4,832 nucleotides of DNA, taken from the IMG/VR virus record IMGVR_UViG_2698536435_000010, one strand, 5' to 3'. The position numbers and the translations under genes are program-made. This document shows, piece after piece, positions 585-812 of the stretch. Under the pieces are notes generated by a model. The model had not been told where the DNA came from. It worked only from the letters and a program-made list of their open reading frames with translations, and did no database searches. How positions within the stretch are numbered: the first letter of the stretch is position 1; each line of letters opens with the position of its first letter. Source of the stretch: a virus. Taxonomy: Duplodnaviria; Heunggongvirae; Uroviricota; Caudoviricetes.

Positions 585-621
585 GCCCTAATCATGAGTT
601 AGGGCTTTCTTTAAGAGTTTT
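585..621 (+). terminator. hairpin plus T-rich tail (terminator-like), first copy of the repeated TTAGGGCTTT motif
   Basis: Stem gccctaa (585-591) / ttagggc (599-605), loop tcatgag, followed by tttctttaagagttttt. Confidence 0.3.
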
Positions 622-681
622 TAAACAGAGCTTTTAAAGAAAGTTTTCCTGAAACTTCGTTAACGTTATAAGCAAACCTCC

Positions 682-720
682 AAAGCCCTTCACAGATTAT
701 GTTTAGGGCTTTTCTTAATA
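682..720 (+). promoter_or_regulatory. second hairpin carrying the TTAGGGCTTTTCTT motif
   Basis: Stem aaagccct (682-689) / agggcttt (705-712) with a 15-nt loop, followed by tcttaata. The 3' arm and tail repeat the motif seen at 599-620. Confidence 0.25.
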
Positions 721-812
721 GAGCATCTTTAATAAATCGTTAAGTCATCTTCTAAGTGTATTGGCGTTGAAGGTGCTCTATTAAGAAATAACCACACTTA
801 GAGGAAATTATA

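Follow-up and report, generated by a model that had tools for sequence, protein, structure and literature searches.

A folded leader RNA with candidate tandem terminators and a predicted translational lock ahead of tail genes in a satellite-like Escherichia coli element

The window considered here (the whole stretch of DNA that was analysed, 4,832 nucleotides from IMG/VR virus record IMGVR_UViG_2698536435_000010) contains a non-coding stretch of 450 nucleotides, at positions 363-812, which holds two copies of one sequence motif, and the question raised by this locus is what the repeated motif does. An earlier note, made from the letters of the window, had offered tandem terminators, anti-terminators and paired protein-binding sites as possibilities. 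The present work favours the first of these: with a probability of roughly 0.55, on the strength of modelled RNA structures, the two copies mark tandem and probably leaky intrinsic terminators, designated t1 and t2, in a leader RNA. The leader probably keeps the tail-gene operon of a satellite-like Escherichia coli element switched off.

The repetition of the motif is far above chance. The copies, TTAGGGCTTTCTTTAAGAG at 599-617 and TTAGGGCTTTTCTTAATAG at 703-721, form a direct repeat with identity at 16 of 19 positions, lie about 104 bp apart and show dyad symmetry. When up to three mismatches are allowed, the 19-mer has two matches in the window compared to an expected 0.01, the exact 10-mer TTAGGGCTTT occurs twice (599-608 and 703-712) compared to an expected 0.02, and none of 200 shuffled controls reached two motif copies. 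The claim of two copies made in the earlier note is therefore borne out, and the complements that it reported are present at their places (gccctaa at 585-591 and aaagccct at 682-689); its second string, tttagggcttttcttaatag, is also present, but at 702-721 rather than 703-722, a shift of one base. The further claim that each copy forms the 3' arm of a hairpin holds for the first seven or eight bases only, since the remainder is a T-run that doubles as the 5' arm of an AU-rich hairpin immediately following. Each copy is thus part of a larger unit: it closes a GC hairpin as its 3' arm, supplies a U-run and opens the adjacent AU-rich hairpin as its 5' arm, the units being hairpins HP1 (585-605) and HP2 (606-642) for copy 1, and HP4 (682-712) and HP5 (711-788) for copy 2. 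The two copies pair in different registers, copy 1 through TTAGGGC and GCCCTAA, copy 2 through AGGGCTTT and AAAGCCCT. The features concerned are the following.

Positions 585-612, + strand: HP1, the proposed terminator t1, with stem 585-592/598-605 (GCCCTAAT/GTTAGGGC) and T-run TTTCTTT at 606-612; motif copy 1.

Positions 606-642, + strand: HP2, an AU-rich hairpin of 16 bp, whose 5' arm is the HP1 T-run and the rest of motif copy 1.

Positions 682-716, + strand: HP4, the proposed terminator t2, with stem 682-689/705-712 (AAAGCCCT/AGGGCTTT), an inner stem of 3 bp and U-run TTTTCTT from 710; motif copy 2.

Positions 711-788, + strand: HP5, with arms of 22 nucleotides (711-732/767-788) and an inner stem, whose 5' arm is the HP4 U-run and the rest of motif copy 2.

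HP1 has eight pairs, four of them G-C, with a folding energy of about -10 kcal/mol and a pair probability of 0.97-1.0 in the nascent RNA by partition-function folding, while the core of HP4 consists of five pairs and an A-U extension (-10 to -13 kcal/mol; 0.8-0.99 in the nascent RNA); for the two hairpins together, the pair probabilities range from 0.8 to 1.0 across the nascent RNA and the full leader. The segment 575-650 folds with z = -4.5, and HP5, whose arms are an inverted repeat of 91% complementarity, folds with z = -5.9. The T-runs that follow HP1 and HP4 are found on the + strand only.

Relatives of the leader were gathered from E. coli genomes and one metagenome scan with a conserved 18-mer (492-509), which yielded 56 distinct leaders of 320-507 nucleotides; two alignments, A1 and A2, hold 6 and 54 sequences respectively. 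Absence of the motif from homologous regions had been named beforehand as the result that would speak against a function, and the motif is in fact retained there, with two copies in 44 of the 56 relatives, one copy in 11 and a TAGGGT variant in the last. Both modules are likewise present in 44 leaders. The other 12 have a single GC hairpin: ten of these are without HP1 and HP2, one (L039; relatives are cited by such handles where they must be told apart) has motif copy 2 altered by an inversion, and one (L062) lacks exactly the segment between the motif copies, a deletion that attests to recombination between the direct repeats.

The hairpins vary among the relatives in ways that tend to preserve pairing. 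HP1 is found in 44 of the 56, in each case with six T in the next eight bases, and in L089 a compensatory change from A-U to C-G gives GCCCTCA/TGAGGGC. HP2, for which 98% of alignment cells are paired, shows a compensatory change from U-A to C-G in L089 and L091 (TTTCTTCAA/TTGAAGAAA) and, in some relatives, a switch of G.U pairs to G-C; L027, L032, L040 and L068 have a shortened or damaged HP2. The stem of HP4 is unvaried across the two-module relatives and its tail opens with at least four T in 44 of 44, while its interior tolerates sizes of 14-45 nucleotides as well as one inversion, that of L039, in which the interior is naturally inverted with the stem and the T-run retained and TTTAGGGC lost. 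HP5 is built from three unrelated arm sequences which give the same hairpin fold; 8 of 17 pairs are changed on both sides, and RNAalifold independently predicts HP5 with 12 of 21 pairs compensatory.

Across alignment A2, standard pairs make up 93.1% of the cells in the proposed helices compared to 87.7% in shuffles, of which 0 of 500 reach 93.1%, and only 36-60% of cells pair when the partner arm is slid. Cells changed on both sides number 197, where 85 would be expected, and most of this covariation signal is supplied by HP5. The + strand folds more stably than the - strand in 55 of the 56 leaders, many G.U pairs are present, and the most divergent relative, L091, has the identical architecture. 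Taken together, the covariation, the inversion, the range of interior sizes, the G.U pairs and the strand bias therefore point to RNA structure on the + strand rather than to a DNA site or a sequence-specific binding motif. The suggestion of paired protein-binding sites is accordingly not upheld, because what is kept is pairing rather than sequence, and it is kept in a strand-specific manner.

A promoter-like site lies ahead of these structures.

Positions 387-415, + strand: sigma-70-type promoter, TTGACA-17-CATAAT with a TGn extension, score 11 of 12, start predicted near 422.

This site has the top score both in the window and in the whole of the related element L003. It is unchanged throughout A1, a promoter match is present in 70 of the approximately 72 relatives recovered, and no other + strand promoter-like site was seen between it and the ATG at 813. 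Transcription would thus be expected to initiate at 387-415, which gives a leader of about 390 nucleotides between the predicted start (about 422) and the ATG. For the leader, the folding z-score is -7.8 on the + strand and -4.5 on the - strand; read from the 5' end, the predicted structure consists of the hairpins HP0, then the long and conserved HPA, HP1, HP2, one small hairpin, HP4 and HP5 in succession.

Of the functions proposed for the motif, the tandem terminator is the one that best fits these structures, and the structural part of the claim stands: HP1 and HP4 are sense-strand hairpins downstream of a promoter, each with a GC stem-loop predicted to form in the nascent transcript and a U-rich tract that follows the stem directly and is confined to the transcribed strand, the T-runs being present in 44 of 44 two-module relatives. 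A generic terminator scan flags HP1 as terminator-like in the window and in L003. On this model HP1 and HP4 would terminate transcription. The anti-terminator proposal is not supported, because partition-function folding of the nascent RNA predicts no mutually exclusive upstream pairing that competes with HP1 or HP4. A nested fold in which copy 1 pairs with the 3' arm of HP5 and copy 2 with the 3' arm of HP2 was also considered and rejected, being available in leaders of type i only and weaker than the local hairpins.

The genes that lie beyond the leader, and a third terminator among them, bear on the same question.

Positions 813-1523, + strand: the first gene behind the leader, encoding a protein of 236 amino acids (aa) of unassigned family with a C-terminal coiled coil.

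Positions 1780-1821, + strand: t3, a textbook intrinsic terminator (GGGAGAG...CTCTCCC and seven T) between an open reading frame (ORF) of 69 aa and the tape-measure gene.

In 41 of 41 distinct relatives examined t3 is kept, with compensatory changes inside the stem. In the simplest relatives the Shine-Dalgarno (SD) sequence and ATG of the tape-measure gene follow within about 10 nucleotides of t3; a promoter would not fit there, so that transcription of the tape-measure gene must pass through t3. An arrangement in which the U-tract of t3 is absorbed by the next hairpin occurs in the fold of the window and was set aside, since it is not conserved among the relatives. Relative to the predicted start, t1 lies at about +165 to +190 and t2 at about +260 to +295, and t3 ahead of the tape-measure start codon. 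Phage operons under antitermination have this layout, in which terminators in series follow a single strong promoter, and this hints at control of that type.

Several observations weigh against termination at HP1 and HP4. The stems are short (about -10 kcal/mol), the interior of HP4 spans 14-45 nucleotides, and a G spacer separates the HP1 stem from its T-run in 29 of the 44 copies. A d'Aubenton-Carafa-type score is mostly slightly negative, although this can serve as a rough indication only, modern energy parameters having been used with the formula and one control having had ill-chosen coordinates. The short stems and the borderline score are the reason for regarding the terminators as probably leaky. 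The covariation of HP1, HP2 and HP4 amounts to very few events, HP4 never varies within the two-module set, and the covariation of HP5 and of its loop (described below) reflects about three lineage types and hence few independent events. Only one GC hairpin is present in 12 of the 56 leaders, and five of these 12 keep the hairpin despite a degenerate tail, (T/C)ATTCAG, in place of the T-run, so that the hairpin may have an additional structural role. The T-runs could exist just as arms of HP2 and HP5. Finally, no Q-family or other antiterminator was found among the scanned upstream and neighbouring ORFs of the window, L003 and L005.

These points lead directly to the main rival of the tandem terminators, namely that HP1 and HP4 are purely structural parts of a long 5' untranslated region which do not terminate transcription at all, that the stacked helices shield the RNA from Rho and RNases and position the loop of HP5, and that the T-runs are no more than the arms of HP2 and HP5. 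Such a reading is possible though on balance unlikely. It accommodates the modest predicted strength of the terminators, the five single-module relatives just mentioned, the gain or loss of whole hairpins along the leader, and the fact that no T-run base is left unpaired in the read-through fold. It does not explain why the arm on the side of the GC hairpin opens with a T-run and never with an A-run in HP2 and in all three types of HP5, since pairing alone does not demand one over the other, and it must further contend with the selection of HP1 by the generic scan and with the presence of a canonical terminator of similar style, t3, further down the operon. Tandem terminators consequently remain the best-supported reading, by a judgement only a little better than even, with purely structural hairpins as the principal competitor.

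The best-supported additional result of the analysis, as read from the sequences, concerns the loop of HP5, which is complementary to the ribosome-binding site of the first gene.

Positions 748-759, + strand: apical loop of HP5, a predicted anti-SD element, TCTTCTAAGTGT, complementary to 794-805 (12 nucleotides).

Positions 794-815, + strand: SD region (ACACTTAGAGGA, 794-805), followed by the ATG (813-815) at which the 236-aa ORF starts.

Loop and SD region change together, as an upstream element that pairs with a ribosome-binding site would be expected to do: CTCTTCTAAGT accompanies ACTTAGAAGAGG in two of the HP5 types, TTCACCTCT accompanies AGAGGTGAA in the third type, and L089 and L091 combine ATTCACCTC with GAGGTGAAT. 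A loop and the SD region of its own leader form a duplex of -17.7 kcal/mol; a loop and an SD region from different types reach -10 to -12, and shuffled loops -8.4. The complementarity and its covariation therefore place the second motif copy at the base of a candidate translational operator, in which a pseudoknot between the HP5 loop and the SD region, as modelled, would repress translation.

The mechanism that would follow can be stated conditionally. The leader would be transcribed from 387-415 toward the 236-aa ORF, the 69-aa ORF, the tape-measure gene and the Dit-like gene, and most transcripts would end at t1 (585-612) or t2 (682-716). In those that read through, the U-tracts would become the 5' arms of HP2 and HP5, and the HP5 loop would pair with the ribosome-binding site of the first gene and so form a second, translational lock. 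A more speculative extension is that a processive antitermination signal, supplied by the element itself or by a helper phage, might let polymerase pass the serial terminators.

The part of the leader that precedes HP1 contains two further structured features.

Positions 424-452, + strand: HP0, a hairpin (424-446) with a T-run (447-452) at the 5' end of the predicted transcript, flagged as terminator-like by the scan.

Positions 492-555, + strand: the most conserved core of the leader, comprising GGTGCAATGCTTTTCGTC (492-509) and the long hairpin HPA (about 495-555, apex 510-540).

HP0, whose stem ends are similar to those of t3, shows a compensatory change in L001 (GGAAGAG/CTCTTCC), where the T-run is missing; it may be a 5' stabilizer, a terminator of the upstream operon, or both. 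The 18-mer GGTGCAATGCTTTTCGTC is identical in all six sequences of A1, including the 71%-identical copy from O157, and the most divergent relative, L091, retains only GTGCAATGCTTT of it; HPA has compensatory changes in both of these relatives. Conservation of the 18-mer at an overall identity of about 71% suggests a sequence-specific role for the promoter-proximal leader, such as protein binding or a seed.

This conservation is also an argument for a second rival explanation, according to which the main product of the locus is a constitutive, trans-acting small RNA (sRNA) of about 190 or 290 nucleotides, with t1 and t2 serving as its 3' end and Hfq module and with read-through merely incidental. 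Window positions 355-577, from the promoter to just before HP1, are the part most widely shared among E. coli genomes and are retained even where the downstream sequence has been replaced, and a hairpin with a U-tail is the layout of an sRNA terminator. However, the leader is always fused to one operon and to a co-varying SD lock, which argues for a role in cis, no promoter-like site follows t2 that could drive the operon separately, the leader matches no Rfam family, and no complementarity to phage records was detected. Although sRNA and cis roles are not mutually exclusive, the sRNA is rather improbable as the main product.

The search behind the Rfam result used release 15 with a permissive E-value, and no family reached its gathering threshold for the leader; the best matches were miRNA-type hairpins on HP5 at chance level (E = 2.5-5; 19-21 bits compared to thresholds of 56-79). 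ARAGORN found no tRNA or tmRNA genes. Two other candidates were rejected. A leader peptide would require the ORF at 467-637 or that at 471-569, both of which are broken by 1-nucleotide indels in relatives, so that there is no conserved leader ORF; an antisense RNA would require the promoter-like site on the - strand at 835-807, which overlaps the start codon and whose hexamers are unconserved in relatives. The leader RNA appears to be an undescribed family assembled from parts of known kinds.

A third explanation places the function in DNA, the repeats being paired binding sites for a regulator or recombinase, or part of a cos/pac or origin-type structure. The spacing of about 104 bp with dyad symmetry, the recombination between the copies in L062, and the presence in the element of a replication initiator and an HNH gene (upstream in relatives) would be in keeping with this. 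Nevertheless the explanation is very unlikely, given that the sequence varies where pairing holds (TGAGGGC, compensated, in L089; the inversion giving GAAGGGC in L039), that many G.U pairs in HP2 and HP5 would turn into A.C mismatches in the opposite strand or a cruciform, that folding is clearly biased toward the + strand, that the first copy is dispensable in 12 of the 56 relatives, and that a deletion such as that of L062 is possible for any direct repeat. Least credible of all is an RNA immunity of the P4 type, in which the repeats would be seqA/seqC-like targets of processed leader RNA that cause premature termination: direct repeats do stand behind a constitutive promoter with a complementary partner near each, and the arms could cross-pair in type-i relatives, but every partner is immediately adjacent with a local hairpin probability above 0.9, similarity beyond TTAGGGCTTT is found only in type-i leaders so that the cross-pairing is unconserved, and the leader matches no family in Rfam, which includes the C4/CI antisense RNA family.

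What the proposed terminators and lock would control depends on the nature of the element. The window holds a decayed copy of a small integrative element whose intact relatives measure about 12-13 kb; E. coli ECONIH4, ZH177 and O157 Sakai are examples of strains that carry an undisrupted copy. Bases 1-53 are the end of an IS1 insertion sequence (IS), which truncates the ORF upstream of the leader, and an IS3-family element of 1.6 kb (about 2465-4084), which has copies of 99.9% identity on plasmids of Shigella sonnei and E. coli, interrupts the tape-measure gene and leaves it in two halves (1912 to about 2464, and about 4085 to 4806); from these two insertions it follows that this copy of the element has been inactivated and that the source genome is rich in IS elements. 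The relatives occupy at least three integration sites (in yecE, beside wrbA and beside tonB) and have large serine recombinases. Their genes encode an AP2-type regulator, a Dam-type methylase, a replication initiator and often an HNH endonuclease, together with a protein of 234-246 aa, a protein of about 70 aa, a tape-measure protein of about 690 aa and a Dit-like protein; no capsid or terminase genes were found in the related elements examined.

A query of 533 nucleotides (window 298-830) matched 477 of 5426 complete E. coli genomes (about 9%), at a median of one place per carrier genome and a maximum of three, always inside this element, which led to the rejection of dispersed palindromes like repetitive extragenic palindromes (REP) or bacterial interspersed mosaic elements (BIME). 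By blastn the leader has no match in 50,697 phage records. Among phages, those closest in their tape-measure protein (L003 7621-9693) are the FelixO1-like virulent myoviruses, with about 29% identity across its whole length, which suggests a possible helper group. SpLE2 has been described as a prophage-like element of 13,459 bp with 16 genes (PMC7430833, PMC5931665) that is transcriptionally quiet under sulfamethoxazole-trimethoprim (SMX-TM), and the O157:H7 copy, at 2,738,079-2,751,537 in strain Sakai, is probably SpLE2, as judged from matching size and gene number. Literature searches found no description of a satellite family that combines a tape-measure gene with a serine recombinase, nor of an sRNA of enterohaemorrhagic E. 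coli (EHEC) at this locus, and the family looks like a group of undescribed satellite-like elements.

The first gene of the operon is itself obscure. The 236-aa, 69-aa, 71-aa and upstream ORFs had no informative match in Pfam, PHROGs, NCBIfam or PADLOC; the sole match of the 236-aa protein was to Pfam Mod_r, below threshold (E = 0.0079; 16.6 bits compared to a cut-off of 30.1). No phage homologue was found by tblastn against the same 50,697 phage records, and a scan of genome contigs with the protein returned one locus. RefSeq labels the protein 'transposase' or 'hypothetical protein' (e.g. WP_264873100.1, WP_167778401.1); as it matches no transposase family, the former name looks like an annotation artefact.

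Two side observations concern the surroundings of the promoter and of t3. A hairpin cassette of about 29 nucleotides, ATGAGGATAG(T/C)CTTCTATCCGAAGTCTAT, is present or absent at two sites depending on the relative, occurring after the leader promoter in L004, L014, L016, L021 and L042, and after t3 in L002, L004, L014, L035 and L042; each site adjoins GTAT(AT), and the cassette looks like a small duplicated or mobile module. In addition, a tiny hydrophobic ORF at 297-362 (MELVIICFVLIGMIAGASIKV) overlaps the stop codon of the upstream ORF (TAATG), and a 24-aa variant, TLVILWTALGLFVGCWMGNTVNKN, can be read from the alignment at the same position in relatives, which suggests that a small conserved membrane peptide may be encoded just upstream of the leader promoter.

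Taken by themselves, HP1 and HP4 would be ordinary regulatory parts, and the interest of the locus comes from the conserved leader of about 390 nucleotides without a match in Rfam. One promoter, three serial terminators and a lock on the ribosome-binding site suggest tail genes that are silent until a specific signal arrives, and if that signal were identified, it would become clear whether these elements are phage satellites and by what means they detect a helper. It is conceivable, though doubtful, that the leader is a helper-phage sensor of an undescribed family of phage satellites with tape-measure and Dit genes of their own, in which 422-577 would act as a nut/put-like loading site for a factor, encoded by the helper or the element, that carries RNA polymerase past t1, t2 and t3, and in which the anti-SD lock would be opened (for example by RNase III); if this were true, then the tail genes of the satellite would be expressed solely during helper infection. 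The leader also offers compact natural parts, namely a terminator combined with a read-through hairpin, and an anti-SD loop.

The proposed arrangement can be placed beside several known systems. With the tandem intrinsic terminators of leader attenuators it shares a GC stem-loop and U-run on the sense strand, two of them in series, folding in the nascent RNA, with a promoter upstream and genes downstream; it differs in its short stems, interrupted U-runs and large, variable HP4 interior, in having neither an alternative antiterminator fold nor a leader peptide, and in U-runs that double as the 5' arm of the next hairpin. Late control in phage lambda involves the constitutive promoter PR', the 6S RNA, the terminator tR' and read-through mediated by Q. 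The resemblance to PR'/tR' is one of layout only: a strong, apparently constitutive promoter is followed by a terminator within 200 nucleotides (about 190 nucleotides downstream), by further terminators and by tail genes, whereas no Q-family protein was found in the element ORFs scanned, nor any sequence similarity to phage late regions.

In the retroregulation of lambda by tI/sib, the terminator joins a longer double-stranded structure only in read-through transcripts. Here, too, the terminator sequence would enter a longer duplex upon read-through, and the HP5 stem of 22-36 bp is of the size of an RNase III substrate; however, the extra helix lies beside the terminator hairpin and upstream of the gene, and cleavage by RNase III is purely conjectural. 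Operators and pseudoknots that sequester the SD sequence are known, for example, from the leader of T4 gene 32 and from rpsO. The present leader resembles them in that a conserved structure just before the start codon would pair with the ribosome-binding site and co-varies with it by lineage, and it is distinguished from them by its anti-SD sequence, which lies about 40 nucleotides upstream, in the loop at the tip of a very long hairpin.

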